In this document: positions 3,720-45,456 of the stretch, one piece after another
How positions within the stretch are numbered: position 1 is the first letter of the stretch
How the letters are laid out: the number at the start of each line of letters is the position of its first letter
NCBI GenBank assembly: GCA_964582235.1
Contig: CAZOQW010000001.1
Location: forward strand, 76,835 to 140,834
Reading direction: 5' to 3'
DNA from: an uncultured Muribaculaceae bacterium
Lineage (GTDB): Bacteria; Bacteroidota; Bacteroidia; Bacteroidales; UBA932
DNA: 64,000 bases
Position numbers and translations under genes: made by a program
The notes under the pieces: model-generated
The model's input: only the letters and a program-made list of their open reading frames with translations
The model's database searches: none
What the model was told of the DNA's origin: nothing

Positions 3720-3744
3720 CGTTGCACACAATAAAAATTATTTA

Positions 3745-3752
3745 TATCTTTG
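3745..3752 (+). promoter_or_regulatory. -7 promoter element (TATCTTTG) for rpsF-rpsR-rplI
   Basis: Consensus match about 50 nt upstream of the rpsF ATG. Confidence 0.7.
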
Positions 3753-3799
3753 CAGCCCCTTATGAAAAGGGGCTATTTTTTAACTAATTTAATTTTAAA

Positions 3800-22920: not shown

Positions 22921-23027
22921 ACCGGTCGGGACGAATTATCCCCCCCCCGAACTTTTTTGCAGAAATGCGGTAACTCCATGTGTATCAATCAGATTGACAC
23001 ACATGGAGGAATCAGGAAAGTGCCCAC

Positions 23028-27332: not shown

Positions 27333-28001
27333 ATGTGGCCATTTCGCAAAAAGATAACCCTTGAGGAAAGCGGTTTTTTAAACGGCTTCACTGACTGGCA
27401 TAGTCATATACTCCCTGGAGTAGATGACGGTGTTCAGACAATGGAGGAAGCCTTACGAATATTGGCCGAATACGAGCGACTCGGTGTAAAGGAAGTCTGG
27501 CTTACCCCTCACATCATGGAGGATATTCCAAATACTACTGAGGGCTTGAGGGAACGATTCTCTGACCTGCAGGCTGAGTACAAGGGGAACATGGAACTGC
27601 ATTTGGCTGCCGAGAATATGCTGGATAAGCTATTCGAGGAACGGTTGCGGGGAAATGACCTTTTACCCTTGGGAAAGGAGAGGAACCAGTTGTTGGTGGA
27701 AACCTCCTGTTACAATCCGCCGATGGGCTTGCCGGACATCCTGCAATGCATAAAGTCTAAAGGTTATTTTCCGGTACTGGCCCATCCGGAGAGATATGCC
27801 TACATGGATGCAGACTATTACCGCCGGCTTAAAGACATGGGCGTCAAATTCCAGTTGAACTGTTTCTCTCCATCAGGCTTTTACGGCGAAGAAGCCAAGA
27901 AAAAGTCGGAATACCTGCAGAAACATGAAATGTATGACTGTTCAGGGACGGACTTGCATAGCTTAGAGGTTTTGAAAAAGATGCTGCAGATTAAAGGATG
28001 A
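27333..28001 (+). CDS. wzb: PHP-family tyrosine phosphatase (CpsB/CapC)
   Basis: DWHSHILPGVDDG, LTPH, LAHPERY, GTDLH. Confidence 0.88.
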   Translation: MWPFRKKITLEESGFLNGFTDWHSHILPGVDDGVQTMEEALRILAEYERLGVKEVWLTPHIMEDIPNTTEGLRERFSDLQAEYKGNMELHLAAENMLDKLFEERLRGNDLLPLGKERNQLLVETSCYNPPMGLPDILQCIKSKGYFPVLAHPERYAYMDADYYRRLKDMGVKFQLNCFSPSGFYGEEAKKKSEYLQKHEMYDCSGTDLHSLEVLKKMLQIKG

Positions 28002-29149
28002 AGAACGTGCTTATTGTTTCTCAGGTTATTCCTCAATGGTATGTTGAGACATTGAGGAATGCATTGGGAAAAGATACTTGCATAGATATTATTACGGGAA
28101 GTGAGGTGACAGACTGCAATGTGATACCCTCACCTCCCCATGATGCCCGCAATTTCAGGTCACGTATAGTCTGTTGGATAAGACATTATCGTTTTGTCAA
28201 ACAGTGGACAAAGAAGAATCGGCATAGACATTACGATCTGATTTTTGCCGTATCAAATCCTCCCATTAATGCTGCGATTGGGCTGAAGCTAAAGAAACTG
28301 TTCAATGCACCATTTGTTTATATGAACTGGGATTTATATCCCCAAGTCATCGAATATGGTGTGAGAAATGTGGTTGGCAAAACAGTCAGTCTCTTGTGGC
28401 ATAGCTGGAACAAGCGTAATTACCAAAAGATAGACCGAATGCTGACCATTGGCAATATAATGGCAGAAACTATCAATAGCAGCATAGAGAGGAAAATCAA
28501 AATTGATGTATTGCCTGTTGCCGTAGATACCGTTCGTCTGCACCCAATAGAAAAGGCGAATAATCCCTTTGCTGTGGAGCATCACCTGACTGATAAATTT
28601 GTTGTACTCTATTCAGGCAAAATGGGAGTCGGACACAATATTGAACTTATATTGGCAGCTTCCCGATTATTGGAGAAGCATACCGATATCTATTTTGTCT
28701 TTATTGGCAATGGTCCCAAGTATGAGGTAGTAAAACGCTTTATAGCAGAAAATAATTCCAAAAACATACTGCTTCTCCCTTTACAAGCCGAAGATATGTT
28801 TCCCTACTCAATGGCTTGTGGAGATATAGGAATAGTATCGCAAGAGGCAAGCATGGCACATTTATTCATGCCCAGCAAGGTATATAGCATGATGGCGTGC
28901 GGGGAAGCTATAATTGGAATTGGCTCAGAGTATGACGATTTGAAATGCCTTATAGAACGTGCGAATATAGGATTCAACATATCAAGGAATGATGCAAAAT
29001 ATTTAGCGAATTGCATTTTTAAGTTATATGACAATTTAAAGTTGCTAAATTTCTTCAAGGTAAATGCTCGAAGAACAGCAGAATTGGACTATTCTATAAG
29101 CGTAATGCAAAGTCGTTATTCTACATTGTTTAATAGTTTGTCCAAATAA
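27998..29149 (+). CDS. GT4-family glycosyltransferase
   Basis: SNPP, DLYP, YSGKMG..H, FIGNG, PSKVY..MA.G. Confidence 0.85.
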   Translation: MKNVLIVSQVIPQWYVETLRNALGKDTCIDIITGSEVTDCNVIPSPPHDARNFRSRIVCWIRHYRFVKQWTKKNRHRHYDLIFAVSNPPINAAIGLKLKKLFNAPFVYMNWDLYPQVIEYGVRNVVGKTVSLLWHSWNKRNYQKIDRMLTIGNIMAETINSSIERKIKIDVLPVAVDTVRLHPIEKANNPFAVEHHLTDKFVVLYSGKMGVGHNIELILAASRLLEKHTDIYFVFIGNGPKYEVVKRFIAENNSKNILLLPLQAEDMFPYSMACGDIGIVSQEASMAHLFMPSKVYSMMACGEAIIGIGSEYDDLKCLIERANIGFNISRNDAKYLANCIFKLYDNLKLLNFFKVNARRTAELDYSISVMQSRYSTLFNSLSK

Positions 29150-29158
29150 GAAGGCGTT

Positions 29159-30340
29159 ATGCCCACATTGCTTCAAATTAATACTGTTGTCAATACCGGT
29201 TCTACAGGACGGATTGCTGAAGAGATAGGCAAAATTGCAATTTCACGCGGATGGAAAAGTTATATTGCCTATGGAAGAGGAAAGCCGCAAAGTGAATCAC
29301 AGCTGATTAGAATAGGAAATGATTGGGATATGTACAGCCACATCCTTCAATCCCGGTTGTTTGATAATCATGGATTGGCATCCAAGAATGCTACAGAAAA
29401 GTTTATCAAGCAGATTGAAAGAATAAAGCCCGATGTAATACACTTGCATAATATTCATGGTTACTACCTGAATTATGAAATATTATTTCAATATTTTGCA
29501 CACATAGATACCCCAATAATATGGACGCTGCATGATTCTTGGGCATTGACTGGCCATTGTGCTTGTTATGAATGTGCAGACTTCGATGCAGATTGTAAGA
29601 GTTGCCACTATATACACAGCTATCCAAAGTCTTTATTCCTATCAAGAAGTAAGAAAAACAAAGAAAACAAAAAAAAGGTTTTTACTTCTGTAAACAGAAT
29701 GACCATAGTGACAGTTTCAAAGTGGTTGGAAAGTTGTGTAAAAAAAACATTTCTAAACAAGTACCCTATCAAAACAATCTATAATGGAATAGATACTCAA
29801 ATTTATAGACCCTTGCCTTATTTGAAGCAAAATGTTAAAACTTTATTAAGTGTTGCAAATATTTGGTCTGAGAGAAAGGGCTTAAAGGATATTATTGCAT
29901 TAAGAGAACATCTCCCATTTGAGTATCAGATCATCTTAATTGGATTATCCAAGAAACAAATACAAAATTTGCCTCCGGGCATAACAGGCATTCCTCGGAC
30001 AGACTCTCAATTAGAATTAGCAAGATATTATTCAAATGCCGATGTTGTCCTAAGTTTATCAACTTACGAGACTTTCGGACTTACAGTTGCTGAAAGTTTA
30101 GCTTGCGGAACACCAGTAGTTGTGTATAATATTACATCACCTCCGGAATTGGTGACTAATGACATAGGTAGAGTTGTAAATATTCACGATATAGAAGGTG
30201 TCAAATCGGCTATAATAGATTTATGCAATACCGAAAAAGAGTATTGGGTAAATACTTGTAGGTCAAAAGCTATAAAATTGTACAATGAGAGTTGCAACTA
30301 TTTGCAGTATTTCAATCTGTATAAGGCTTGCATTTTATAA
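29159..30340 (+). CDS. GT4-family glycosyltransferase
   Basis: GSTGRIA, HLHNIHG, WTLHD.W..TGHC, YETFGLTVAESLACGTPVV. Confidence 0.88.
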   Translation: MPTLLQINTVVNTGSTGRIAEEIGKIAISRGWKSYIAYGRGKPQSESQLIRIGNDWDMYSHILQSRLFDNHGLASKNATEKFIKQIERIKPDVIHLHNIHGYYLNYEILFQYFAHIDTPIIWTLHDSWALTGHCACYECADFDADCKSCHYIHSYPKSLFLSRSKKNKENKKKVFTSVNRMTIVTVSKWLESCVKKTFLNKYPIKTIYNGIDTQIYRPLPYLKQNVKTLLSVANIWSERKGLKDIIALREHLPFEYQIILIGLSKKQIQNLPPGITGIPRTDSQLELARYYSNADVVLSLSTYETFGLTVAESLACGTPVVVYNITSPPELVTNDIGRVVNIHDIEGVKSAIIDLCNTEKEYWVNTCRSKAIKLYNESCNYLQYFNLYKACIL

Positions 30341-30359
30341 TTGAATCCTTCTTCAACCA

Positions 30360-31556: not shown

Positions 31557-32661
31557 TTTTGTTAGCCCTCATGTCCTCCCACTGTGCGATGAGCTTTATC
31601 GGCAATCTGAGGAGCAATTTAAGTTCATCGAAACGAGGCAAATGTCACTTGAACGACAAAACTTAGGATATAAACAACTACGGAACAGAAAGTTTGTTGT
31701 CACATACGAAAAGTATTCTAAGGATAAATCAGGTTATCAAGAAGAAATAAACAAGGCTGCTGTGGTTATGGCCAGTTTTGGCTCCATTAACAATAAGCTC
31801 CTTATGGATAGGATAAGGAATGATAAGCTGACTTTTTTGTTAGCAGAGCGAATGTTCAAAAAAGCGATTTTTAAATTCGCAGATCCTCGCTTCTGGAAAA
31901 ACCTATTATTCTTTTCAAGAATCAGGTATAAACAGTTTCATTTGCTATGTATGGGCGCATACGTAGCACAGGATTTTGCGCTGTGTGGTTTCAATCGCGA
32001 TCGGATGTGGAAGTTTGGATACATTACATCGGGATATGGCGAAAACAATTCCAATATACGAAAAAGTGAGAACAAAACTCTTAAATTGCTATGGGTGGGG
32101 CGTATGATATGGTGGAAACAGCCATTTCAAGTAATAAAGGCTGCAAAGATGCTGCATGAAAGGGGATATGATTTTACACTTGATATTGTGGGCGGAGGGA
32201 AATTAGAGAAGAAGATTAAAGCTTATATTGAAAAAACTAATCTTTCCGAAATCACTTATCACGGCTTGAAAAAGAACGATGAAGTAAAAGAGCTGATGCA
32301 ACATTCCGATTTCTTGATTTGTACAAGTAACCGACTCGAAGGATGGGGAGCAGTAATCAACGAAGGGATGGATGCGGGCTGCGTCGTAATTGCCAGCAAG
32401 CAGATGGGGGCCACACCCTATCTTATAACGGATGGAGTGACCGGATATAGTTATTCGGGAGGAGCAAAGGCTTTGTTTCAGGCATTAGCCAAGGCATTCG
32501 AAAGAAATCGTATAGAAATAAGCAAAAATGCACAGACATTTATCCGTGAGAGTTGGAGTGCAGATATTGCCGCACGACGTCTATTAGGATTAATCTCTTT
32601 CATACAACAGGATAAGCAGCATAAAAGATTGTATGATAGCGGAATCTGTAGTAAAGCTTAA
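31537..32661 (+). CDS. GT4-family glycosyltransferase
   Basis: LWVGRM..WK, IVGGG, EGWGAVINEGM..GC (ExxxxxxxE). Confidence 0.85.
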   Translation: MIIFISNFVSPHVLPLCDELYRQSEEQFKFIETRQMSLERQNLGYKQLRNRKFVVTYEKYSKDKSGYQEEINKAAVVMASFGSINNKLLMDRIRNDKLTFLLAERMFKKAIFKFADPRFWKNLLFFSRIRYKQFHLLCMGAYVAQDFALCGFNRDRMWKFGYITSGYGENNSNIRKSENKTLKLLWVGRMIWWKQPFQVIKAAKMLHERGYDFTLDIVGGGKLEKKIKAYIEKTNLSEITYHGLKKNDEVKELMQHSDFLICTSNRLEGWGAVINEGMDAGCVVIASKQMGATPYLITDGVTGYSYSGGAKALFQALAKAFERNRIEISKNAQTFIRESWSADIAARRLLGLISFIQQDKQHKRLYDSGICSKA

Positions 32662-32664
32662 CTG

Positions 32665-33936
32665 ATGAAACAATTAATTTACCGCCTTCGGAAAAGTTCC
32701 TTGATGAGAGACTCCTTTTGGGCGTTGCTGGGCAATGTCTTGGGAAAAGGACTGGCATTGGTTGCCGGAATTGCCGTAGCGCGCTTTCTTGGAAGCGAAG
32801 CATATGGTGAATATGGGATGATACGCAATAACTTGACAATGATAGCTATATTCTCTTCATTAGGATTGGGATACACAGCTACAAAGTTTATTGCAGAATG
32901 CAAAGGCAATAAAGAACAAGCATACTCGATACACAAAGTAGTTTCACGTATCACATGGGTTACAAGTGGAGTTATCATGGTGCTTGTGATAGTGCTTGCC
33001 AATCCACTTGCCACTTGGCTCGATGCTCCACATCTTGGTCGCTTGTTGATGCTTGCATCTGTTGCAGTTGTATTTAATGCCGTGAACACTACGCAAATAG
33101 GTGAACTGTCAGGGTTTAATGCATATAAGGAGATTGCATTTAACAATACTTGGGCCGGCATTGTCACTTTCGTAGTAAGTGTAGGTCTTACTTTCTTTTA
33201 CGGTATTGAGGGAGCAGTTATCGCATTAATCATTTCATTTGCTACCAACTGTTTGCTAAATTTGCGTTCACTCAAAAAATATTTGCCACGACAAAAAGTT
33301 GTCAATGGTAATACCAATTTCCGAGAAATACTCTCATTTACTTTTCCAGTGGCGTTGCAAGAAAGTTCTTACTCCATAACACACTGGCTAAGCACAATAT
33401 TGCTAATCAAGCTCGCCGGATATGGAGAACTCGGATTATACTCTGCAGTAGCGCAATGGATGGGTGTAATGCTGTTTATCCCGGCAGCATTACGCAATGT
33501 GGCACTGTCCCATCTATCAAAAAGCAACGATGACATGAATACAAATAAACAAGTGTTGAAGCGTATGCTACAAATCAACCTTGTAACGACACTCATTCCA
33601 TTTATAGTTATTGCGCTGCTTTCCGGCTGGATTTGTTCATGGTACGGAGAAAGCTATGTTGGCATGCAGAGTGTGCTGAACGTATGCATGTTTACAACAG
33701 TTTTCAACAGCCTTTCCAATGTGTTAACTCAAAACTTAATTGCAATGAATCAGAATTGGTATCTTTTCACAACTCGCATAATTCGTGATTTGTTAATATT
33801 AGGTTTTGCGGCTTTACTGATTTTAAAATTGGGCAAAGGTTCTCTTATGTACGCTTTAGCTTCGCTTATATTTCAGATTATATATTTATTTCTTTTGCTG
33901 TCCAAACAACACTCTTTGTTCAAAAAGTGTAAATAA
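32665..33936 (+). CDS. wzx: Repeat-unit flippase
   Basis: ARFLG...YGEY, about 12 TM segments, second G..ELGLYS repeat. Confidence 0.85.
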   Translation: MKQLIYRLRKSSLMRDSFWALLGNVLGKGLALVAGIAVARFLGSEAYGEYGMIRNNLTMIAIFSSLGLGYTATKFIAECKGNKEQAYSIHKVVSRITWVTSGVIMVLVIVLANPLATWLDAPHLGRLLMLASVAVVFNAVNTTQIGELSGFNAYKEIAFNNTWAGIVTFVVSVGLTFFYGIEGAVIALIISFATNCLLNLRSLKKYLPRQKVVNGNTNFREILSFTFPVALQESSYSITHWLSTILLIKLAGYGELGLYSAVAQWMGVMLFIPAALRNVALSHLSKSNDDMNTNKQVLKRMLQINLVTTLIPFIVIALLSGWICSWYGESYVGMQSVLNVCMFTTVFNSLSNVLTQNLIAMNQNWYLFTTRIIRDLLILGFAALLILKLGKGSLMYALASLIFQIIYLFLLLSKQHSLFKKCK

Positions 33937-33970
33937 AAATTCGTAACTTAAATTAATCGGCATAATTATT

Positions 33971-34507
33971 ATGATGTATCCCAAGCGCCTTTTTATTATA
34001 AACAAGTTAGTTGGTTTGCTCCCTATGTCGAAGTGTAACTCGCTGAAGTCAAGACTATATAAATGGGGGGGAGTAAAAATTGGCAACAATGTAGAACTAT
34101 TTTCCGGCCTTAAAATAATAGGCAATGGTGAACTGGAAATAGGGGATAATGTCTTTATTGGCACAGAGGCAATGATTTATGTTAACAGAGGCAGCAAAGT
34201 TATTCTTGAAGAACACGCTTCTGTAGGAACTCGTGCCATAATTGTTACTGGCTTCCATCCGATTACGCCAGAGGGGCCACGGATAACCAGTCATAAAAGC
34301 ACAACAAGTACTGTAAGGGTTTGCAAGGGGGCTTCTGTCGGTACTGCAACTATTGTTTTACCAGGCATAACTGTAGGAACAATGGCTCACTGCGTGGCTG
34401 GGGCTGTAGTAACTCACGATGTGCCTCCATACCACAGAGTTGGAGGCGTTCCCGCCCGGTTTATTCGTGACTTGAGGCTTCCAAAGGAAAATAACAATAA
34501 TGTATAA
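33971..34507 (+). CDS. Left-handed beta-helix (hexapeptide) acyltransferase
   Basis: IGNNV, IGDNVFIG repeats, VLPGITVG, VTHDVP...VGGVPARFI. Confidence 0.85.
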   Translation: MMYPKRLFIINKLVGLLPMSKCNSLKSRLYKWGGVKIGNNVELFSGLKIIGNGELEIGDNVFIGTEAMIYVNRGSKVILEEHASVGTRAIIVTGFHPITPEGPRITSHKSTTSTVRVCKGASVGTATIVLPGITVGTMAHCVAGAVVTHDVPPYHRVGGVPARFIRDLRLPKENNNNV

Positions 34508-35108
34508 GCATTATTTAAAGCGGGTAATAGATTTCATTCTCGTTCTTTGTGCCTTGGCTGTTATTTGGCCTGTGCTTGTTATAATAGCTATTTTGCTTCA
34601 TTTCGCCAACAAAGGTGCAGGGGCTTTTTTTTTACAAGAGCGACCGGGTAAGGATGGGAAGATATTCAAGGTCATCAAATTCAAGACTATGACTGATGAA
34701 CGGGATGCAGATGGTAATTTGTTGCCCGACGAAAAACGGATTACGAAAATAGGGAAACTGATTCGTTCTATCAGCATTGACGAACTACCACAGCTTATTA
34801 ATGTACTGAAGGGTGATATGTCGCTTATTGGCCCTCGTCCTTTATTGGTGCAATATCTGCCGCTATATAGCAAAGAGCAAGCACGACGGCACGAAGTACG
34901 TCCCGGCATAAGCGGGTGGGCGCAATGTCATGGACGCAATGCTATTAGTTGGACAGAAAAGTTCAAACTTGATGTGTGGTATGTTGACCATTGCTCTTTC
35001 AAAGTGGATATGAAAATTATATGGATTACTCTACTGAAAGTAATCAAGCGTGCCGATATCTCCCAGGAAGGGCGAGCCACGATGGACTATTTTGACGGCA
35101 CAAATTAG
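34500..35108 (+). CDS. Initiating phosphoglycosyl transferase (PglC-like, Bac_transf)
   Basis: KRVIDF, FLQERPG..GK.FK.IKFKTM, SIDELPQLINVLKGDMSLIGPRP, RH.VRPGISGWAQ. Confidence 0.92.
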   Translation: MYKHYLKRVIDFILVLCALAVIWPVLVIIAILLHFANKGAGAFFLQERPGKDGKIFKVIKFKTMTDERDADGNLLPDEKRITKIGKLIRSISIDELPQLINVLKGDMSLIGPRPLLVQYLPLYSKEQARRHEVRPGISGWAQCHGRNAISWTEKFKLDVWYVDHCSFKVDMKIIWITLLKVIKRADISQEGRATMDYFDGTN

Positions 35109-35121: not shown

Positions 35122-36075
35122 ATGAAAAATATATTGATAACTTCTGCAGGTAAGCGGGTAGCGTTGACAAAAGCATTCAAAGAGACTACGGTACGATTTG
35201 ACTCTCACGCCAAGGTGTTTACCACAGACATGAATCCGAGTATGGCTCCTGCGGCATACGTCAGCGACAAGTGCTTTGAAGTTCCGCGAGTAACCGATGA
35301 TGCTTATCCGGAATTCCTGCTGAAACTCTGCGTGGATAATGAAATTGGCATGGTAGTGCCGACCATTGACACAGAATTAATGGTGCTGGCACACGTGAAA
35401 GAAATGTTTGCCTCAAGAGGTGTCCATGTGATAATTTCCAGCCCATCATTCATAACGACATGTCGGGACAAACGAAATACAGAAAGATTTTTCGAGCAAC
35501 ATCACATACGCATCCCTACAGCCATAGACAAACATCATCCCTCCTTCCCTCTGTTTGCCAAGCCCTACGACGGGTCGCTGAGCACAAACCTGCACTATAT
35601 CAAGAATGAAGCTGAACTTACTCCCGACATTCTGAGTGACCCCAAATTGATGTTTATGGAGTATATCGACAAGGCCATATATAAGGAATACACCGTTGAT
35701 ATGTATTATGGTAAGGATAACCGTTTGAAATGTCTTGTGCCTCGTGAGCGTATTGAGATACGTGCAGGAGAGATAAACAAAGGCAGAACGGCAAAGAATG
35801 GTTTGGTTGCCTTTTTAAAAGAACGATTGGAATATGTCGAAGGCTGTGTGGGATGTATATGCCTGCAGCTGTTTTATCATGCCGAAACGAACGATGTGAT
35901 TGGTATTGAAATCAATCCCCGTTTCGGTGGTGGTTACCCTTTATCCTATGCAGCCGGTGGAAATTTCCCGAAGTTTCTTATTCAAGAATACTTTCGGAAC
36001 GAAGTTTTGGCGTATACCGATGATTGGAAAGACAAGCTGTTAATGCTTCGGTACGATGATGCCATTTTCGTGTAA
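35122..36075 (+). CDS. ATP-grasp fold ligase
   Basis: ILITSAGKRV, VVPTIDTEL, CRDK, FAKPYDGS.S, MEYI, EYTVD, IEINPRFGGG. Confidence 0.85.
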   Translation: MKNILITSAGKRVALTKAFKETTVRFDSHAKVFTTDMNPSMAPAAYVSDKCFEVPRVTDDAYPEFLLKLCVDNEIGMVVPTIDTELMVLAHVKEMFASRGVHVIISSPSFITTCRDKRNTERFFEQHHIRIPTAIDKHHPSFPLFAKPYDGSLSTNLHYIKNEAELTPDILSDPKLMFMEYIDKAIYKEYTVDMYYGKDNRLKCLVPRERIEIRAGEINKGRTAKNGLVAFLKERLEYVEGCVGCICLQLFYHAETNDVIGIEINPRFGGGYPLSYAAGGNFPKFLIQEYFRNEVLAYTDDWKDKLLMLRYDDAIFV

Positions 36076-36739
36076 ACAATTAGTTTGTTTTGACCTCGAT
36101 GATACACTCTATAAAGAGGTATGGTATCTTAAATCGGCATTCAAGGAGGTTGCGAACTTTATCGCTCAATCCGGTGAATCTGATTCAGCTGCTATATATG
36201 AAGCTATGATAACATTGTGGGGCGAGGGTAAATCGCCTTTTCAAGAAATAAACACATTGCTCCATATAGATGTTCCCATTAAGGAGTGCCTACGTATCTA
36301 TCGGGAGCACAAACCGTATATCCATTTGGATGAAGGAACACAAAATACCCTGAAAGCCTTGCGAAAGAATGGTTGTACTATCGGGCTTATTACAGACGGC
36401 AGGAGCATAACCCAACGAAACAAGATAGAAGCGTTAGGTTTGCATACTTATATAGCAGAAAATGACATAATTGTTTCAGAGGAATTTGGTTCAGAGAAAC
36501 CTTCCGTACAAAACTACTTATACTTCATGGAGAAATACCCTCATGCTGCATTTACGTATGTAGGGGATAACCTTGCCAAAGATTTTATTGCTCCCAACTC
36601 ATTGGGTTGGAAAACCATTTGCCTTTTGGACAATGGAGAAAACATACATCAGCAAGATTTATCCTTATCCAAGGAGTATCAGCCAAATTTCTTTATCAAA
36701 GACATTATGGAAACTGTTGAACTGCTTAACAGATGTTGA
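36056..36739 (+). CDS. HAD-superfamily hydrolase
   Basis: FDLDDTLY, ITDG, EKP, YVGDNLAKDF. Confidence 0.85.
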   Translation: MMPFSCKQLVCFDLDDTLYKEVWYLKSAFKEVANFIAQSGESDSAAIYEAMITLWGEGKSPFQEINTLLHIDVPIKECLRIYREHKPYIHLDEGTQNTLKALRKNGCTIGLITDGRSITQRNKIEALGLHTYIAENDIIVSEEFGSEKPSVQNYLYFMEKYPHAAFTYVGDNLAKDFIAPNSLGWKTICLLDNGENIHQQDLSLSKEYQPNFFIKDIMETVELLNRC

Positions 36740-37395
36740 TAGAATTTAGTGGCTTGGATTGCGCCGGCAAGTCCACCCAAATTGATTTGCTTGTGGAATA
36801 CCTGCACAAGCGAGGGTATAAGGTTAAAACCGTTTGGAGTCGAGGTGGTTATACGCCGGGGATCACCTGGCTGAAGAATTTGGTACGAGGAGGGAAGGGG
36901 AAATCACCGGAGCAAATGTCTCAAGCCGAACGGGAGGCCAAAGCGAATGCAAAACCACAAGGCGGGAAGTTACTGTTGTGGTTGTCTATCCTTGACCTCA
37001 TTGCATACTGGGGTATTGTATTCAGAATATGGAGTAGAGGAAGGAAGGTATTATTGTGCGACAGATATTTATCGGACACATACATAGATTTCAAACTGAA
37101 ATATCCGACTGTATCATTTCAAAAATGGCAGGTTTGGAAAATTCTGGTAAATGTTTACAGAAAGCCAACTTACTCTTTTGTACTGACTATTACACCTGAA
37201 GAGAGTATGAGGAGATCAAGCCTGAAATTTGAGCCGTTCCCTGAATCGCAGGAGAAGCGGGAGAAGCGGCTTGAAATGTATTTGAAGGAAATTAAAAATG
37301 GCCGATGGCAATATGTGGTGGACTGCATGAGACCCATCAATGACATTCATCAAGAACTAAAATCGAAGATAGATGAAAATCTCGGAAATGCTTGA
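36733..37395 (+). CDS. Thymidylate-kinase-like P-loop kinase
   Basis: IEFSGLDCAGKSTQ, LCDRY. Confidence 0.8.
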   Translation: MLIEFSGLDCAGKSTQIDLLVEYLHKRGYKVKTVWSRGGYTPGITWLKNLVRGGKGKSPEQMSQAEREAKANAKPQGGKLLLWLSILDLIAYWGIVFRIWSRGRKVLLCDRYLSDTYIDFKLKYPTVSFQKWQVWKILVNVYRKPTYSFVLTITPEESMRRSSLKFEPFPESQEKREKRLEMYLKEIKNGRWQYVVDCMRPINDIHQELKSKIDENLGNA

Positions 37396-38500
37396 ACGGG
37401 AGGATTTCTACTCTATCCTGCAAGAAACACTACGGACTTACAGCACGCCATTGGGCTTCAACCCCGATCTCGTTGTGACGGAACGTAGCGAAAACAGTTG
37501 CGACTTATATATAAATCCCCGATTGAATGCCATATTGCCTAAGCGTCCGAGTCAGGCAATCATAGCATATCTTCAGACAGAATATCATGTCGGGGGCAGT
37601 TGGCCAAGGCGTATGGCTGTGAAAGGGTATTTGTGCTTGGCCACCCATTTTGTTAAACAATGCTCGCAACGAGGAATTCAAATAAAATATAAGCACGACA
37701 TAAGCAATCTGCTTATCTATCCATGTAACAAAAAGATACGCATATTCGACTTTGGAAAAAACATCGTTTATACTGTACTAAAACAAGGTTTCCCGGACAA
37801 TTATCTTCAACGGGAAATTCAATTTCGCCAAAGAGAAGCCAATGATTTTATTCCGGACATTATAGAGGCCGACAATGGCTTCTATTCGGAACAAATCATT
37901 AAAGGCAGACCATTGGCTCGCATTAACGATGGGAACTTTGTAAAGAATAAAAAAAGCGAAGCCTACCAACTGATACTATCGTTGACCCCAAAGGCAGAAA
38001 CTGTCAATACGAAAGAATACCTGAAATATCTTGCCGCAGAATGTGAGAAACGATTGCAAACGAAGCAGTTAACCATTGAATGCAAACAGGCTCAAGCGAT
38101 ATTTGATCTACTAATCAATAACTCCCCCGCTGAGGAAATTCCGATTGTGCTTAGTCATGGGGATTTCCAGTCGGGTAATATTTGGTTAGATGATGCAAAT
38201 AATGGTAAGTTGGTCATCATAGACTGGGAAACCGTAAAAAACCGAAGTCCTTTCTACGACCTGGCAGCACTCTTTCTGAATATGCGAAGAGACAAAAACG
38301 TTCAACGACTTTACGATAATATCTTGTCAGGTAAATGTGCAACGATGAGAGAATACGGTAATTCTGCCAAGTGTATCGGCACAGTCGTACTGGCAGAAGA
38401 ACTGGCTTATCAGACTGAAGAGTTGAGTAGCTTTCCCGGGAATATCGGAGTGAAAGAGTACAGACAAATCATAGAGCAATACATACATCTGAACTTATGA
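37373..38500 (+). CDS. APH/choline-kinase-like phosphotransferase
   Basis: Brenner motif SHGDFQSGNI, IIDWE, FYDLA. Confidence 0.8.
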   Translation: MKISEMLEREDFYSILQETLRTYSTPLGFNPDLVVTERSENSCDLYINPRLNAILPKRPSQAIIAYLQTEYHVGGSWPRRMAVKGYLCLATHFVKQCSQRGIQIKYKHDISNLLIYPCNKKIRIFDFGKNIVYTVLKQGFPDNYLQREIQFRQREANDFIPDIIEADNGFYSEQIIKGRPLARINDGNFVKNKKSEAYQLILSLTPKAETVNTKEYLKYLAAECEKRLQTKQLTIECKQAQAIFDLLINNSPAEEIPIVLSHGDFQSGNIWLDDANNGKLVIIDWETVKNRSPFYDLAALFLNMRRDKNVQRLYDNILSGKCATMREYGNSAKCIGTVVLAEELAYQTEELSSFPGNIGVKEYRQIIEQYIHLNL

Positions 38501-39732
38501 TTGAGCAGATATTTGGGAATGAGTATTTCAAACTGATGTCATACATCATCAGAGAGAAGAACACCGATGAAGAGATTGCTTATATCAAGCAATCTGTCTC
38601 CATATTGCAGTCCGAAGAGTTTTACGAGATAGCCAAAGAGCATGAGCTGGTAAGCACCATTGCCGTAAAACTAAAAAAGAAAACCGGCATTGAGCTGGGG
38701 AATGCTTGGATGAGAGAGGTGGAGGACACCCGGAAACGACTGTCATTTCTCTTCAATGCAGTAGAAAAAATAGGAGAAGACCTGAAAGCACACGGTATTC
38801 CCTTAATACTTTTAAAGAATGGTGGCATTGCCATAGACATCATGGATGATTTGGCTGAATGTCCTATGGGTGACATAGATATGTTGTGTCGCAAAACTGA
38901 TTTTTATGCTGTACACGAAATTATCTTGAATCATGGATTCCAGTTCAAATTTCGAAGTATTCATGAATTTGAGGATTTAGATGAAGCCTTTGCTGATGGA
39001 AGTACAGAATACAGCTACGAGGATGAGAACGGCGAAACGCTGTGGATAGAGTTGGCATGGCGGCCTGTTGCCGGTCGCTGGATACGCAAAGATAAAGAGC
39101 CGGATGCAGAGAGGCTTGTCGCGGACTCCCACGCGGCGAAGCGTTCATGTTGTCACGTCCTTTCCAACGAGGACAACCTATTGCAGGTCTCCATTCATAC
39201 GGCCAAACATTCCTACGTGAGGGCTCCTGGCTATCGTCTGCATTTGGATGTAGATCGCATAGTATCGAATAAAGAAATAGACTGGGATTTGTTCCTGCAA
39301 AAGGTGGATGCTGTAAATTCTAAGACTGCGGTGTATTTTTCATTGTATCTGGCACATGAGATTCTGGGGACAGATATACCAGAAAACGTATTGAACGCAC
39401 TAAGGCCAGCAAAGCGCAAGGAAAAGCGTATTATGAGAATGCTTCTGAAAGCAAACCTGATGCATCCACATGGACGCAAATTCTCAAAAGTAGGGTTTAT
39501 CGCTTTTCAGACGTCTCTGTATGATTCTTATAGGGATTTACTTGCTGTATTATTCCCTCCCGGCAGCGCGCTAAAGGCAAAATATAATTATCGCAGCAAT
39601 GTCCTCACTCCGTATTTTTGGCTGGTATATGCTTTAGACATGGTTGGGATAAGGAAAGCGAAGACAGATAAAAAGCAATACGCCTCCATGGAAAATAAAA
39701 TAATTTCAGAGGGGGGGGGAGTAAATCGCTAA
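38497..39732 (+). CDS. Nucleotidyltransferase family protein 1 (NTP_transf_5-like)
   Basis: LILLKNGG, PMGDIDML, IELAW, LLQVSIHTAKH, LHLDV. Confidence 0.75.
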   Translation: MIEQIFGNEYFKLMSYIIREKNTDEEIAYIKQSVSILQSEEFYEIAKEHELVSTIAVKLKKKTGIELGNAWMREVEDTRKRLSFLFNAVEKIGEDLKAHGIPLILLKNGGIAIDIMDDLAECPMGDIDMLCRKTDFYAVHEIILNHGFQFKFRSIHEFEDLDEAFADGSTEYSYEDENGETLWIELAWRPVAGRWIRKDKEPDAERLVADSHAAKRSCCHVLSNEDNLLQVSIHTAKHSYVRAPGYRLHLDVDRIVSNKEIDWDLFLQKVDAVNSKTAVYFSLYLAHEILGTDIPENVLNALRPAKRKEKRIMRMLLKANLMHPHGRKFSKVGFIAFQTSLYDSYRDLLAVLFPPGSALKAKYNYRSNVLTPYFWLVYALDMVGIRKAKTDKKQYASMENKIISEGGGVNR

Positions 39733-40700
39733 GCCATAAAGATTTACAGAAAATAGAAAGACTTGGAATATTTAAAATCTCTCGATTCGCTTATGCCAAT
39801 AAGACCTTGCCATTTGTCGCCAAATTAATGGTGGAAAACAACAGCAATACCGGCTTTTGGCTTCCAATTATTAAATCATACCAAATCCGCAATTCACTGA
39901 TAAAGGCTGCTCTTGAGGCATTGTTTGAAAAAACAAACAGCCAAGGGGTGAAGCACTTGTTTGTATCAGAAAATTTCGCTGCCCTTCTCAAATCAGGTAA
40001 TAACATAGGGTTGTTTGCTTCTGGAGATGTTGATTTGGTGGCAGACACAAAAGAGATGACTTTGATAAAAGGAGTGCTTGACGATTTAGGATATGAGTAT
40101 ACTGACATATCAGCAAACGGCAGTCTCTTGATTACTCATTGCAGGAATGATAGACAGTTGCCATTTGGATTTGTATTAAATATCAACTGGACCCTATTCC
40201 CGCGAAAATATTTACCCCCGATTATTACGACCTCCCAAGCTGTAGATTACGAAAAGCTGGAATGTCTTGGTGGAAGTATCAAAATACCGGATTTAACATC
40301 TTTGCTATATGTATGCTTGTTGCACACCTCTCTCCATTCTTTCTGTCGGAAACCGGGCATACGGTTGTATGTCGATATTGCCAATTTGCAGCGTAAATGC
40401 ACGGAAGAAGTCTGGCAAGAGGTATTGGCAAGAGCTTCAAAGGATGGTGTGTATAGAAGAGTTGTCACAGCTATTTCTGTGTCAAAACGCCTTGGTGTCG
40501 ATGGCATTCCGGGCGGTCTGAGTCCGAGTGGGAGTAGTGTCCTCGTGGCATTAGTGTGCAAAAAGAATGGGCTGCGATTAAACATGTCAAGTTCCGTTGT
40601 TTTCAGTTGTCTTGTGGAGATGCTTTGCGATGACAAAGGCTGTGTTCATTTTTTGAGTGAGCTGATGTCAAATACTCTTTTCAAAAGAAAAACCATATAA
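39688..40700 (+). pseudogene. Nucleotidyltransferase family protein 2, out of frame at a G9 tract (candidate phase-variable gene)
   Basis: Downstream frame is open from the G9 (39711-39719) through SKSLSHKDLQK...LFVSEN...SGDVDL...LLHTSLH...LYVDI; G10 or G7 joins it to ATG 39688 and to ORF 38497. Confidence 0.7.
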
Positions 40701-40712
40701 AACAACTAATTT

Positions 40713-41990
40713 GTGAATAGGATTTATTTATGTCTCGCCCACATGAGCGGGCAGGAACAGAAGTATATCAAAGAGGCGTTTGATACGAACTGGGTAGTTC
40801 CATTAGGGCCCAACGTGAACGGATTTGAAGAAGATTTGAAACAATTTGTGGAAAGTGATCCGAATGGCGAAAAGATGAATTGGACACAGACTCATGGTAA
40901 AGAAGTGGTTGCACTCTCTTCCGGCACAGCGGCTGTCCATTTGTCGTTGGTTGCACTCGGTGTACAAGCAGGCGATGAGGTTATATGCCAGTCGTTCACA
41001 TTCTGCGCATCGTGCAACCCCATCAAGTATTTGGGGGCAACTCCTGTATTTGTAGATTCAGAACCCGAAACATGGAACATGGATCCATCGTTATTAGAAG
41101 AAGCTATCAAGGATCGTATTAAGAAAGTTGGACGCAAGCCCAAAGCCATTGTGGTGGTCTATCTTTATGGTATGCCCGCCAAGATCGACGAAATACTGGC
41201 CATAGCTCAAAAATATGACATACCTCTTGTTGAAGACGCAGCAGAAGGACTTGGAAGCAGATACAAAGGACGGGTATGTGGCACATTTGGCGAATATGGC
41301 GTACTGTCGTTCAATGGCAACAAGATGATAACAACTTCAGGCGGTGGAGCGTTGATATGCCCCAACAAGGAAGCCAAACAGGAAGTCATGTTCTATGCTA
41401 CACAAGCTCGTGAAAGCTACACTTATTACCAACACGAACAAATTGGCTACAATTACCGCATGAGTAATATCTGCGCCGGAATCGGGCGAGGGCAGATGAC
41501 TGTGTTGAATGAACATATTCTTCATCATAAGCAACTTGCTTCATTATATGAGGAAATGTTTGCGAATATTTCGGGGATTACTTTTCACCGGAATCCATCA
41601 GAAGCAATAGATTCCAATTATTGGTTAAACACTATTACCCTCGACCCCGAACTACAGGTGAAAGGTGAAGAAAAAGCATACGCAGAGAAAGTGCAAGGCG
41701 CAGTGGGTGGCGCAGCAGGTGTAATGCACAGCACAACATCCACCCATACTGACTGCGAGCCAAACAACAACGTGGAAGCTATGCGAATGGCTCTTGATGC
41801 CGAAGGCATTGAAAGTCGCCCGCTGTGGAAACCCATGCACTTGCAACCTGTTCACAAAGAATGCCCAAGTTACGTGAACGGAGTTTCAGAATCTTTGTTC
41901 AAAATTGGATTATGTCTGCCGAGCGGACCTTACGTTTCCGTAGAGGATGCCATTCGTATTGTTACGGTAATTAAACAGCAAATAAAATAA
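40713..41990 (+). CDS. DegT/DnrJ sugar aminotransferase (PglE-like)
   Basis: SSGTAAVHL, VEDAAE.LG, SFNGNKMITTSGGG, GYNYRMSN, ESRPLWKPMH, CLPSG. Confidence 0.93.
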   Translation: MNRIYLCLAHMSGQEQKYIKEAFDTNWVVPLGPNVNGFEEDLKQFVESDPNGEKMNWTQTHGKEVVALSSGTAAVHLSLVALGVQAGDEVICQSFTFCASCNPIKYLGATPVFVDSEPETWNMDPSLLEEAIKDRIKKVGRKPKAIVVVYLYGMPAKIDEILAIAQKYDIPLVEDAAEGLGSRYKGRVCGTFGEYGVLSFNGNKMITTSGGGALICPNKEAKQEVMFYATQARESYTYYQHEQIGYNYRMSNICAGIGRGQMTVLNEHILHHKQLASLYEEMFANISGITFHRNPSEAIDSNYWLNTITLDPELQVKGEEKAYAEKVQGAVGGAAGVMHSTTSTHTDCEPNNNVEAMRMALDAEGIESRPLWKPMHLQPVHKECPSYVNGVSESLFKIGLCLPSGPYVSVEDAIRIVTVIKQQIK

Positions 41991-43903
41991 TGAAAGTATT
42001 TTCAAAATTTGCCTATTGGTATTTCACCAAGGGAGCTTTGCCGTATTGGTTTATTTTCATTGGTGACTGTATCATTTTCGTCCTATCCGGATTGTTTGTG
42101 TATGCATTCAATCATGGAACGCTGCTTACATTGCAAGCATTTTGGGCAGTATTGGCAACCCTTTCATTTTATCTGCTGTTTTACATAGTCGGTTTCAGAC
42201 TATTCCACACATATGCAGGAATCATACGCTATTCTTCTTTCAACGACCTGCAGAGGACTGCTTCAGCTATCCTTGTTGGATGCCTATTGTCCATATTATA
42301 TAACCAATGGGATGGTTTAAATTTTCTCCCTGTCGATCTATTTGTGCGAGACATCTTGGCCACCTCTATTCTGAGTTTATTGATTATGTGGGGAATCAAG
42401 ATTCTCATAAAGAATGTATATGATGCTACTTATCATACCTTACAAGCCAAACGAGTATTCATATATGGGGTAAAACATGGTGGGGTAGCCTTGGCTAAAA
42501 GTATCCGAAATGATAATCCCGCTAAATACATTTTAGCCGGTTTTGTTTCTGACGAAAAAGAATTGCGACATCACATTCTTATGGGGGTGAAAATTTATCT
42601 GAACAATGACACATTGATTTCAATGATGAAGAAAGAACGAGCGGATACATTATTAGTGCCTCCACTGAAAAGCCAAAGATTGAAAGAAAATGTTCAAATG
42701 GTTAATAATCTGATAGAAAACGGCATTCACATTTTGGTTGTTCCTGACGCACAAGAATTGAATGAAAAAGGAGAGATTAATCTTTTGCAGCTACGAGAAA
42801 TAAATATAGAAGACTTATTGGCACGCGAGAAGATTGAAATCAATATGGAAGTTGTCGGGAAGCTGCTTAGTAACAAAAAGATTCTGATTACAGGAGCTGC
42901 GGGAAGCATTGGAAGTGAGATCGTCCGTCAAGTAGCTCTTTATAATCCGACTGAATTGGTTCTAGTTGATCAGGCCGAAACACCACTACATGACATACGA
43001 CTAATGATGGTGCAAGATTTTCCTTTCATTAAGTCATACACCTTGGTCGGGGATATTGCCAATCAAGAGAGAATGGAAGAAATATTTCAGGCTCATAAGC
43101 CTGACTATGTGTTTCATGCGGCGGCCTACAAACATGTTCCCATGATGGAAGACAATCCAAGTGAAAGCATTATAAACAACGTTCTTGGTACTCAAAATAT
43201 AGCAGACTTGTCGGTCAGATATGGTATCAAGAAATTTGTACTGATTTCAACTGACAAAGCTGTAAATCCAACTAATGTGATGGGTTGTTCTAAAAGAATT
43301 TGTGAAATTTATGTCCAAAGTTTGGATAAGGCTATTAAGGAGGGGAAAATTAAAGGAGTAACACAATTTGTCACTACGCGATTTGGTAATGTATTAGGAT
43401 CTAATGGTTCGGTAATACCATTGTTTAAGGAACAAATCAAGAACGGAGGCCCGGTCACAGTAACCCATCCGGACATTGTACGCTATTTCATGCTCATTCC
43501 AGAAGCCTGTAAGCTTGTTCTGGAGGCGGGAACTATGGGGTATGGAGGAGAGATTTTTGTTTTTGACATGGGAAAACCCGTAAAAATCATAGATTTGGCC
43601 AAACGGATGATTCAGTTAAGCCATGCCAAAAACATTGAAATAAAAATCACAGGACTTCGGGATGGGGAAAAACTATATGAAGAGGTCTTGAATGAGGAAG
43701 AAACTACCTTGCCAACTTTCCATCCTAAGATAAAAATTGCCAAGGTACGTGAATATGATTATGACTCCATCCGCTTAAAAATTGACGATTTGATTCAGAG
43801 TAGTATACATGATGACGATATGCACATTGTTGGACAAATGAAAGCGATTGTTCCCGAATTTAAAAGCCAGCATTCAAAATATGAAATACTGGATAATACA
43901 TAA
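41990..43903 (+). CDS. Membrane-anchored NDP-sugar 4,6-dehydratase (PglF/CapD-like)
   Basis: N-terminal TM segments, [60 protein letters not shown]. Confidence 0.93.
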
Positions 43904-43995: not shown

Positions 43996-44205
43996 ATGAA
44001 AACAGTTCTTATTACGGGCGTAACCGATCAGGACGGCTCCTATTTGGCCGAATTCCTGTTGGAAAAGGGTTATGACGTACACGGCACCATACGCCGCTCG
44101 TCAGTCGATTACCGCTCCTGTCACAATCGAAGACTAAGTATGGGTGGCGGCAATCCTGCGAAATTTATCAGGAAACGACAAATAAAGGAGGCGGAAAACA
44201 GTTAA
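43996..44205 (+). pseudogene. Chimeric remnant: gmd 5' fragment fused to WcaF-like acetyltransferase fragments
   Basis: [40 protein letters not shown], then PVTIED (other frame) and [11 protein letters not shown] typical of hexapeptide acetyltransferase C-termini. Confidence 0.75.
44029..44115 (+). repeat. 87-bp exact direct repeat, copy 1 (copy 2 at 45735-45821 in gmd)
   Basis: caggacggctcc...gtcgattaccgc is identical in both places. Confidence 0.95.
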
Positions 44206-45371
44206 TACATCATGCCGAAAGTCCAAAGGGGAAGCGTGGCCAGTCCGGCGGTTTCGATATCGTCTTTCACAATGTAAGCGTTTTGCCCGCCCCTGACCTG
44301 TTTCGTTCCTTTGTTTTTGCCGCCTACCTCGAATGTGTACTCACCAATTGTGAAATCCGACAGGCGTGATGACAACGGAACGTGGGTGACACGGGTCAAT
44401 GCATAGAAGAATGTTTCGCGCAGGTTGCCAATGTTGGGCGTGGTGTCGGAAAGAGCGTAAGCCATATTGGTGTTGTCAAGATAAACCTTGTCAATCTTAC
44501 CGAGTCCGCTGATACCCTGCACATCGCTACGCAAGCGGCCAATCATACCCGCCTTCTCAAGGTAAGCGAAAATGTCGTTCAACTGGTTACGGCTGATATT
44601 GATGTCTTGGGCTATTTTGGCCATGTTGGGCTTGAACGGCACACTTTGAGCTATAATATACATCAATTGCTTAAGTTTTCGAGCCGTGGCAATGCCGAAA
44701 TTTGCAAAAGTCGGGATATCGGTTTCCAATGTGGTGTTGATTACGGCGTTCAGTCTTGACAAATAACCTTTTTCCTTGAAAAATGGATAATAACCCTCAC
44801 GCAAGTATTGATGAAAATACGGTAGTGGACGATGTTCCTTGGGAAGATTGACTTCGCCGCGAAGAACATCTTCAAAACTTGCAACCGGTACACGGATGCC
44901 GAAACCAAAATCAAGGTATTCGCGAAATGACAGCCCATACATGGTGTATTGCAACTGGCGCCGTGAAAGATCCGCACCGCCTTTTTCGAGTTCAAGAATG
45001 GATGAGCCTGTGTAGACCACGTTGAGATTGGGAAGACTATCGTAAATATTCTTTATTTCTGCCGACCAATTGCCATACCGATGTATCTCATCGATGTAAA
45101 GACATGTGCCGCCGTTATGATAAAATGTCTCTGCAAGTTCCACCAAAGTATGCCTGCTGAAGTAGAGGTCATCGGCCGTTACATAAAGAGATGCGGACAG
45201 GTTGCCATGCCGCTTGATGTGCTGGAGCAACATCGTGGTTTTGCCCACACCCCGTGCGCCAAGAATGGCGATAAGACGTGCATCCCATTCTATTTTTGGT
45301 TCAAGGTATCTGACAAACCGTGTGTCTGTATTGCGCAGCAGTTCCCTGTATTTCATTATTAGTTGTTCCAT
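44202..45371 (-). CDS. AAA+ ATPase with DUF4143-like C-terminus
   Basis: [33 protein letters not shown]-like [29 protein letters not shown]; start set at MEQLIMKY. Confidence 0.85.
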
Positions 45372-45388
45372 AATCGTGATGTTTGAGG

Positions 45389-45456
45389 CAAAGGTATAAA
45401 AATGCACTGTAAAATGTGCATTTTTTCGCAAAAACGCACTATAGAATGTGCATTTT
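45389..45456 (-). promoter_or_regulatory. ATPase promoter (TACCTTTG at 45389-45396) with two palindromic 24-bp repeats
   Basis: aatgcactgtaaaatgtgcatttt (45401-45424) and aacgcactatagaatgtgcatttt (45433-45456). Confidence 0.6.

Follow-up and report, generated by a model that had tools for sequence, protein, structure and literature searches.

We analysed a 64,000-nt stretch of DNA from an uncultured Muribaculaceae bacterium (contig CAZOQW010000001.1, positions 76,835 to 140,834; hereafter, the window), which contains a capsule locus of the Bacteroidales type with a G+C content of 36-44% vs. about 47-57% in the flanks. Within this locus, six consecutive genes at 35122-40700 encode an ATP-grasp ligase, a HAD phosphatase, a P-loop kinase resembling thymidylate kinases (Tmk-like), a kinase resembling APH and choline kinases (APH-like) and two proteins of the NTP_transf_5 family PF14907 (NT5a and NT5b). 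An initial annotation had proposed that these six genes constitute one pathway, which makes and transfers a nucleotide-activated phosphorylated substituent of the capsule. We observe, instead, that five of the six belong, as parts of two modules, to a block of about ten genes that recurs in at least ten phyla. The genes of this block in the window, together with NT5b, are listed below with the scores of their family matches; the hidden Markov model (HMM) of the glycosyltransferase F3 was built from 64 F3 proteins of related loci.

27998..29149, + strand: F3, WcaI-family GT4 glycosyltransferase (F3 HMM, 430 bits; NCBIfam NF007640, 105.6 bits)
29159..30340, + strand: F1, GT4 glycosyltransferase (F1 HMM, 278 bits; Pfam Glycos_transf_1, Glyco_transf_4)
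34500..35108, + strand: small PglC-type phosphoglycosyl transferase (Bac_transf, 205.9 bits)
35122..36075, + strand: ATP-grasp ligase (PylC-like_N, 88 bits; ATPgrasp_Ter, 44 bits; ATP-grasp_3, 33 bits; NCBIfam PRK12767.1-4, 370 bits)
36056..36739, + strand: HAD-IA phosphatase (HAD_2, 59 bits; TIGR02253, 91 bits)
36733..37395, + strand: Tmk-like P-loop kinase (PF02223, 42.6 bits)
37373..38500, + strand: APH/choline-kinase-like kinase (APH, 43 bits; Choline_kinase, 34.7 bits, cut-off 29)
38497..39732, + strand: NT5a, the first NTP_transf_5 protein (PF14907, 128.7 bits, cut-off 31.2)
39807..40700, + strand: NT5b, the second NTP_transf_5 protein (PF14907, 49.5 bits, profile positions 49-246 only)
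40713..41990, + strand: PglE-like (DegT/LegC-family) sugar C4 aminotransferase (DegT_DnrJ_EryC1, 277.5 bits; TIGR04181, 356 bits)
41990..43903, + strand: PglF-like membrane-anchored UDP-N-acetylglucosamine (UDP-GlcNAc) 4,6-dehydratase (Polysacc_synt_2, 387.8 bits; block family-8 HMM, 506 bits)

As the initial annotation had stated, all six open reading frames are present on the + strand at these coordinates and belong to the families it had named (reading of the frames; Pfam and NCBIfam), they lie between the PglC-like gene and the PglE- and PglF-like genes, and, according to the family scans, none of them is a glycosyltransferase. The tight overlap it had described holds for the first five genes, ATP-grasp, HAD, Tmk-like, APH-like and NT5a, which overlap by 4 to 23 nt, but not for NT5b, which is preceded by a 74-nt gap.

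Recurrence of the six families in other polysaccharide loci had been set as the test of the proposed pathway, and the recurrence is indeed very strong and extends across phyla. A forward search in one genome per species, anchored on an alignment of NT5a relatives, yielded 80 loci, onto which the window proteins were mapped and whose open reading frames were all clustered. The loci span at least ten phyla, being found in Bacteroidota, Clostridia, Chloroflexota, Verrucomicrobiota, Planctomycetota, Acidobacteriota, Proteobacteria, Myxococcota, Fibrobacterota, Atribacterota, Elusimicrobia and others, and a block of about ten genes recurs in them: TMK - APH - F3 - F1 - NT5 - PglC - ATP-grasp - HAD - PglE - PglF. 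Among the species-level loci with at least 8 kb on either side of the NT5a relative (full loci, n = 47), F1 was present in 45, F3 in 42, APH and ATP-grasp in 41 each, TMK in 39, PglC in 38, HAD in 37 and PglE in 36. TMK, APH, ATP-grasp and HAD were found all together in 30 of the 47 full loci, and in two there was no partner gene whatever around NT5. The co-occurrence of the block genes is far beyond chance.

The reverse test was a metagenome scan anchored on the Tmk-like protein, in which matches above 180 bits were taken as orthologues. Wherever the contig was long enough, the orthologues were situated in the same block, with the gene order TMK-APH-F3-(F1)-NT5-(PglC)-ATPgrasp-HAD-PglE and with one exception; the weaker matches, at 40-65 bits, represent another family. 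The exception is locus L111, where a cassette-type Tmk-like gene (3014-3763; 187 bits on the cassette HMM and 35.6 bits on PF02223) has maf and dnaX as neighbours and none of the other cassette genes is present in the 13.7 kb covered. Because this gene matches PF02223 just as poorly as the cassette protein does, we do not count L111 as evidence for a housekeeping role.

The order of genes in the block varies. It is PglE-PglC-ATPgrasp-HAD-F3-F1-TMK-APH-NT5 in Clostridia and F3-TMK-APH-NT5-acyltransferase-ATPgrasp-HAD-PglC in one Bacteroides locus. The PglC gene adjoins the ATP-grasp gene in most loci, the order TMK-APH-F3 is the most constant one across phyla, and F3 is the most tightly linked partner of the Tmk-like, APH-like and NT5 trio. 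Since F3 and F1 (27998-30340) belong to the conserved unit, this unit is larger than the six genes. The six genes are not one unit: five of them form, within the block of about ten genes, module A (ATP-grasp and HAD) and module B (Tmk-like, APH-like and NT5a).

The assumption of a single six-gene pathway fails at this point, as ATP-grasp and HAD have to be considered a module of their own: they occur as fusions, their family is far larger, and they are present without the kinases. The ATP-grasp family has 6792 word-indexed hits (5429 clusters at 50% identity), vs. 1320 for NT5a and 153 for the APH-like kinase, and locus L170, with the order PglC-PglD-ATPgrasp-Branch-HAD-aminotransferase, contains neither kinase.

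The ATP-grasp protein has the fold of its superfamily, as follows from the Pfam matches and from the match to PDB entry 2pn1 (E 6e-31), and motif I of the HAD protein, DxDxT, reads FDLDDT and is intact, with the Asp+2 residue. The two proteins are one polypeptide in L011, L021, L022 and P0379, and their pairing is kept even where a HAD-IB protein replaces the HAD-IA one; we regard the HAD phosphatase as a predicted functional partner of the ligase. Other relatives of the ATP-grasp protein are fused to PglD-like acetyltransferase, FemAB/GNAT or WecA-type initiating transferase domains, and in the window a dehydratase, a C4 aminotransferase and an initiating phosphoglycosyl transferase are encoded beside it. 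Because of the fusions to initiating transferases and to the PglD-like domain, a UDP-4-amino sugar is the likely substrate of the ligase.

Such chemistry has been described. In Neisseria PglB2, an ATP-grasp domain is fused to a phosphoglycosyl transferase; the product is 4-glyceramido-2-acetamido-2,4,6-trideoxyhexose (GATDH), replacing di-N-acetylbacillosamine (PMC11130364, PMC6959607), and Pyl of the Bacillus cereus UDP-yelosamine pathway N-acylates a UDP-4-amino sugar with 2-oxoglutarate (PMC11626204). Both systems share with the window an ATP-grasp protein that is located beside, or fused to, the initiating transferase, is accompanied by a 4,6-dehydratase and a C4 aminotransferase, and stands in for a PglD-type N-acetyltransferase (PMC11130364, PMC6959607, PMC11626204). 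The difference is the HAD partner, sometimes fused, which is not mentioned for Pyl or PglB2 in the consulted passages of these articles. The combination of a ligase with a phosphatase is, in turn, known from Campylobacter jejuni, where a phosphorylated partner is amide-linked by the ligase Cj1438C and then dephosphorylated by Cj1435; there, the glycan contributes the carboxyl (glucuronate) and the phosphorylated partner contributes the amine (PMC11800397). Here, the synteny and the domain fusions suggest that the polarity is probably reversed, with the amine on the sugar.

In the proposed sequence of reactions, the PglF-like and PglE-like enzymes would convert UDP-GlcNAc to UDP-2-acetamido-4-amino-2,4,6-trideoxyhexose, and the ATP-grasp ligase would amide-link a carboxylic acid to the 4-amino group, similarly to PglB2 (glyceroyl) and Pyl (2-oxoglutarate). 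As the HAD phosphatase is coupled to the ligase, the acid may come from a phosphorylated metabolite, e.g. phosphoglycerate; glycerate from phosphoglycerate is our guess for the acid. The phosphatase would remove the phosphate just before or just after the ligation, as in the Cj1438C/Cj1435 pair, and PglC would then transfer the modified first sugar-1-phosphate to undecaprenyl phosphate. By analogy, we consider it rather likely that module A N-acylates a UDP-4-amino sugar in a reaction of a known type. The earlier claim that no known pathway matches the genes therefore stands for the trio of module B but not for the ATP-grasp protein, which is better explained by N-acylation of the PglB2/Pyl type.

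Turning to the trio, the P-loop of the Tmk-like protein, FSGxDGAGKSTQI, and its CDRY motif are invariant, and both align to solved Tmk structures. In thymidylate kinases, REPGGT and S..AYQ are the motifs that bind thymidine monophosphate (dTMP). The Tmk-like protein has SRGGYTP at the place of the former, so that its Arg-Gly-Gly element aligns with REPGGT, and DRYLxDTxIDF in place of DRYxxSxxAYQ, the S..AYQ motif being lost; the middle segment is about 20 aa longer than in solved thymidylate kinases. With the dTMP kinase equivalog TIGR00041 it scores 33.3 bits, the cut-off being 83.25. The role of a true thymidylate kinase was rejected on account of this shortfall and of the lost base-binding motif, and for the same two reasons the Tmk-like kinase, which is probably not a thymidylate kinase, probably acts on a phosphate monoester other than dTMP.

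In the APH-like protein, SHGDFQxGNIW, IIDWE and the N-lobe Lys are invariant. A Foldseek search with its AlphaFold2 model (predicted local distance difference test, pLDDT, 92.5) retrieved, as remote neighbours only, ethanolamine and choline kinases, APH(2''), maltokinase and LicA, with E 1e-7 to 1e-6 and template modelling (TM) scores of 0.4-0.5. The best structural neighbour is an ethanolamine kinase, maltokinase has rank 18, and for LicA (4r7b) E is 2e-6 at 16% identity. The model thus predicts a small-molecule kinase of the APH/choline-kinase fold.

Among NT5a relatives, KNGG...GDIDxL and E185 are invariant, and the catalytic motif G[GS]...DxD with the third acid is present. NT5a has 411 aa, vs. 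385-400 aa in the relatives (most of them 387-392), and the usual stop codon of the relatives is missing in the window. The sequence search yielded no PDB match for NT5a. For its AlphaFold2 model (pLDDT 86.7), the nearest folds found by Foldseek were the MenT1 toxin, LnuA and ANT(2'')-Ia, all at E of at least 1e-3 and a TM score of about 0.3 on the query, the latter two being sugar O-nucleotidyltransferases; among the top 50 matches, there was no LicD- or fukutin-type structure. Hence the structural comparison suggested by the initial annotation places the APH-like protein nearest to ethanolamine and choline kinases and provides only remote neighbours of the polymerase beta (Pol-beta) fold for NT5a, which we assign, from its sequence, to PF14907 as a predicted Pol-beta-fold nucleotidyltransferase.

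Some NT5a relatives (37-40% identity) have no polysaccharide genes nearby: L056, L058, L060, L066, L074, L078, L080, L081, L083 and L084. These ten loci are mostly from Myxococcota and uncultured Proteobacteria, L083 being from Bacteroidaceae; most of the relatives are situated beside a large lytic transglycosylase of the tetratricopeptide repeat (TPR)/Slt-like type, and four beside an OmpR-type regulator. The plasmid search revealed no NT5a relative.

In the literature on NTP_transf_5/PF14907 and on combinations of the cassette families we found no description of the cassette, and no paper, solved structure or curated family explaining the Tmk-like, APH-like and PF14907 trio was found in the literature, Pfam, NCBIfam and PDB. 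Pairs of a kinase and an NT5-type protein are observed in other settings. L003 (14751-19882) contains a second set, consisting of a ChoK-like kinase, a 387-aa protein without a Pfam match, a Wzx-like protein and a second PF14907 paralogue, and a second kinase/NT5 set is also present in the clostridial loci L009, L010, L013, L015, L019 and L020; the clostridial second sets suggest that kinase/NT5 pairs are modular. Another candidate for such a pair is found in the pseudomycoidin cluster, whose protein PsmN we take to be a PF14907 member. In this cluster, the kinase PsmK phosphorylates serine, and PsmN, a nucleotidyltransferase-like protein whose DxD motif is needed, is required to place a hexose on the phosphate (PMC6993621). 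Finally, a phosphonate survey describes a phosphoenolpyruvate (PEP) mutase whose flanking neighbours are a thymidylate kinase and a PF14907 protein (PMC8942020). As pairs of a kinase and a nucleotidyltransferase-family protein recur in the clostridial sets, in PsmK/PsmN and in the PEP mutase cluster, we tentatively interpret the trio as leading to a phosphodiester.

The probable product of the block as a whole is a decorated unit at the reducing end of a Wzx/Wzy-type polysaccharide. In module B, the APH-like kinase would phosphorylate a small alcohol, or else a sugar of the lipid-linked unit, to give a phosphate monoester. That phosphate, or its nucleotide adduct, would be the substrate of the Tmk-like kinase, which has the phosphate-acceptor features of nucleoside monophosphate (NMP) kinases. 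NT5a, coming after the kinases, would form the phosphodiester, and the unit extended by F3 and F1 would finally carry a phosphate-linked substituent. We propose tentatively, from the families and motifs of the three proteins, that module B installs a phosphate-linked substituent in this general form. Production and transfer of a phosphorylated substituent, as suggested initially, is the best reading of the trio that we can infer.

The trio has no described counterpart, whereas module A resembles known chemistry. The system LicA/LicC/LicD, which attaches phosphocholine and is one of the two models invoked by the initial annotation, is similar in that a choline-kinase-fold kinase and a nucleotidyltransferase-fold protein are encoded in a surface-glycan locus and the end product likely is a phosphodiester-linked substituent. 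It differs in that here a Tmk-like P-loop kinase takes the place of LicC/LicD and the nucleotidyltransferase is a PF14907 protein; the Pfam families NTP_transferase, NTP_transf_3 and LicD have no match in the six proteins. In the other model, the phosphoramidate pathway of C. jejuni Cj1415-Cj1418, as well as in the pathway of ATP sulfurylase and adenosine 5'-phosphosulfate (APS) kinase, which leads to 3'-phosphoadenosine 5'-phosphosulfate (PAPS), nucleotidyltransferase and P-loop kinase steps yield an activated donor for a glycan substituent. Cj1415-1418 comprise a glutamine kinase, an amidohydrolase, a cytidylyltransferase and an APS-kinase-like 3'-kinase. None of these families is represented among the six proteins according to Pfam and NCBIfam, and the P-loop kinase of the window is Tmk-like (PF02223) rather than APS-kinase-like. 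With no LicC-, LicD- or APS-kinase-type protein in the six, neither system can serve as the model. In PsmK/PsmN, similarly, a kinase makes the phosphate(s) and then a nucleotidyltransferase-like DxD protein adds a hexose, but there an HprK-type kinase acts on a peptide serine (PMC6993621).

In a further reading, which we consider unlikely, the trio would be a nucleotide-free mimic of nucleotide activation. Here, the APH-like kinase would convert an alcohol X-OH to X-phosphate, the Tmk-like kinase would extend this by at least one more phosphate, as NMP kinases do with an NMP, and the PF14907 protein would use the resulting X-di- or triphosphate instead of a nucleoside triphosphate (NTP), placing X-phosphate on a glycan hydroxyl with the release of phosphate or pyrophosphate. 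If true, this rule would explain why PF14907 proteins occur beside (poly)phosphorylating kinases in lasso-peptide clusters, with PEP mutase and in the clostridial kinase/NT5 pairs, and would provide a general function for the family.

The main rival of the proposed phosphate-linked substituent is a supply line of nucleoside diphosphate (NDP)-sugar for F3. In this salvage-type scheme, the APH-like protein would be an anomeric sugar kinase, NT5a would turn the sugar-1-phosphate into the NDP-sugar to be used by F3, and the Tmk-like kinase would be involved in nucleotide supply or recycling, or would form, as PhnN does, a sugar-1-diphosphate similar to phosphoribosyl pyrophosphate (PRPP). NahK, AmgK and PhnN are precedents for steps of this type; the constant TMK-APH-F3 order and the occurrence of maltokinase among the structural neighbours of the kinase agree with it, and a Pol-beta-fold enzyme performs the same chemistry when it is a phosphate oxygen that attacks the NTP. 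However, this scheme has no real need of a dedicated Tmk-like kinase, the APH-like kinase is structurally closest to alcohol-amine kinases and APH(2'') rather than to anomeric kinases, and, to our knowledge, the known NDP-sugar pyrophosphorylases are not of the Pol-beta fold, which makes such a supply line rather unlikely. The six genes could also encode, after all, one linear pathway, where the APH-like kinase phosphorylates an amino alcohol (e.g. ethanolamine), the ATP-grasp protein links it to a glycan carboxyl, the HAD protein removes the phosphate, and the Tmk-like kinase and nucleotidyltransferases further activate or transfer the group. The tight overlap of the genes in the window, the ethanolamine kinase as the nearest structural neighbour and the use of phosphorylated amines by Cj1438C/Cj1435 (PMC11800397) would be in line with this. 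We nevertheless assign it a low probability: in other phyla the modules are separated by glycosyltransferases and differently ordered, the ATP-grasp-HAD pair is far more common than the kinase (6792 vs. 153 hits) and is present without it, the fusions of ATP-grasp to initiating transferases and to the PglD-like domain indicate a UDP-4-amino sugar as the substrate, and no UDP-glucose dehydrogenase family is present in the conserved set.

Two further alternatives seem less probable still. NT5a might nucleotidylate a sugar hydroxyl or phosphate of the glycan directly, the NMP being the final decoration or a transient activator. We know of no precedent for nucleotide-decorated capsules, the two kinases would not be obviously needed, and the structural matches of NT5a are weak, as given above. 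These points make the scheme improbable, although NT5a has an intact Pol-beta catalytic motif, ANT(2'')-Ia and LnuA, which are among its nearest folds, are O-nucleotidyltransferases acting on sugar-like substrates, and nucleotidylation of phosphoserine by PsmN is left open in the lasso-peptide literature (PMC9266682). Alternatively, the trio could have nothing to do with glycans, being a defence, toxin-antitoxin or regulatory system lodged in capsule loci, as might be suspected from the MenT1 toxin as the solved fold nearest to NT5a and from the NT5a relatives outside polysaccharide loci. Given that the synteny of the trio with glycosyltransferases, PglC, PglE and PglF is kept across at least ten phyla and that the genes overlap in one operon, we consider this highly improbable. 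As a candidate, a defence system was rejected: a comparison of the six proteins with the PADLOC families gave no match at E <= 0.01.

The two-module block, with module A acylating the amino sugar and module B adding the phosphate-linked substituent, is thus our best explanation as a whole, and we put it forward as a possibility that falls somewhat short of even odds. Several points weigh against it. The reactions of both modules, the substituent, the acid and the acceptor are all deduced from sequence, and the ATP-grasp protein is likened to Pyl and PglB2 by its fold, gene context and domain fusions rather than by sequence alignment. If the HAD protein removes phosphate and the kinases add it, the two modules must be assumed to act at different sites. 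The role of the Tmk-like kinase is the weakest step, as it could act before or after NT5a or merely in nucleotide handling. Finally, L170 combines a PF14907 paralogue with ATP-grasp and HAD while lacking both kinases, and in Myxococcota a close NT5a relative has surroundings unrelated to polysaccharides.

The name of PF14907 still designates an uncharacterised nucleotidyltransferase family, and its Tmk-like and kinase partners have no assigned reaction. The block is present in the common human gut species Bacteroides uniformis, in gut Clostridia and in marine and soil bacteria. Solving it would reveal a new decoration of surface polysaccharides, on which immune recognition and phage sensitivity of gut commensals depend, would provide functional annotation for more than 1000 related proteins and might account for the partners of PF14907 proteins in lasso-peptide and phosphonate clusters. 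As there are several cultured carriers, namely B. uniformis, Enterocloster citroniae DSM 19261, Lunatimonas salinarum KCTC 42988 and Endozoicomonas ascidiicola, the role of the block can be tested directly; the core formed by the trio is uncharacterised, widespread and experimentally accessible.

For comparison with B. uniformis, the window segment 27997-43908 was aligned by blastn with the locus L166 of that species. DNA identity was 81% for F3, 87% for PglC-ATPgrasp-HAD, 82% for TMK-APH-NT5 and 85% for PglE-PglF; the ATP-grasp protein of the window is 92% identical to a B. uniformis protein that occurs in 142 indexed blocks of the assembly collection. The window locus has a mosaic structure, with conserved ends vs. 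an unrelated centre (28975-34590: glycosyltransferase, Wzy, glycosyltransferase, Wzx, acetyltransferase). The B. uniformis locus has a single NT5 gene (389 aa) followed directly by PglE. It also has an extra 156-aa open reading frame, without a Pfam match, between HAD and the Tmk-like gene. In the B. uniformis variant L169 (5222-7851, 12772-13898), an IS66-family insertion is present and the APH-like gene is split into open reading frames of 233 aa and 142 aa.

The second nucleotidyltransferase counted in the initial set, NT5b, is not conserved and is disrupted in the window. Two features are relevant here:

39658..40715, + strand: 1,058-nt insertion carrying NT5b (blastn homology to B. uniformis stops at 39657 and resumes at 40716)
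39711..39719, + strand: G9 homopolymer at the NT5a/NT5b junction (read from the sequence)

NT5b keeps SGDVDL and is a divergent PF14907 paralogue. Its relatives are rare, only L102 and L017 having them among the loci examined, and the forms of NT5b on record in the protein collection, of 247, 290 and 297 aa only, are all truncated. The first possible start of NT5b is TTG 39807, while in tblastn the homology to the L102 paralogue starts at 39774; since it extends upstream of the TTG, NT5b is presumably 5'-truncated or frameshifted at the G9 tract. With one extra G in the tract, ATG 39688, which lies inside the extended 3' end of NT5a and in the frame of NT5a, would open a full-length NT5b of 337 aa. 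As NT5a lacks the usual stop and shares its frame with this ATG, the extra G would also fuse NT5a and NT5b into a protein of about 734 aa. In three bird-metagenome runs, the low-depth Logan contigs are interrupted at the tract, whose assembled length is therefore unverified. The tract could be a slipped-strand phase switch, a sign of gene decay or a homopolymer assembly error; judging from the sequence features above, NT5b appears to be a recent, disrupted add-on outside the core block.

The remaining part of the capsule locus, which ends at 43903 with the PglF-like gene, has the following layout:

21450-22661: tyrosine recombinase gene, first in the order of the locus
23028-23615: UpxY/NusG-like gene, after the tyrosine recombinase gene
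after the UpxY/NusG-like gene: Wza, Wzc, CpsB
between CpsB and the PglC-like gene: three GT4 glycosyltransferases, probable Wzy, Wzx, then a hexapeptide acetyltransferase

A perfect 20-nt inverted repeat, ACATCTCTTGGTAAGAGATG, is located at 22705-22724 and 22901-22920 and encloses 176 nt. Lying between the recombinase and UpxY/NusG-like genes, the region 22705-22920 has, by analogy, the layout of a Bacteroidales invertible capsule promoter. A palindrome at 22974-23008, with 17-nt arms and a 1-nt loop, is situated directly upstream of the upxY-like gene. Beyond the locus, the gene at 44202-45431 (- strand) encodes a putative homologue of AAA_14/DUF4143-type ATPases, assigned by analogy with L001, and the size and sequence of the open reading frame 45702-46790, as well as its 90% cluster (2011 members), fit a GDP-mannose 4,6-dehydratase.

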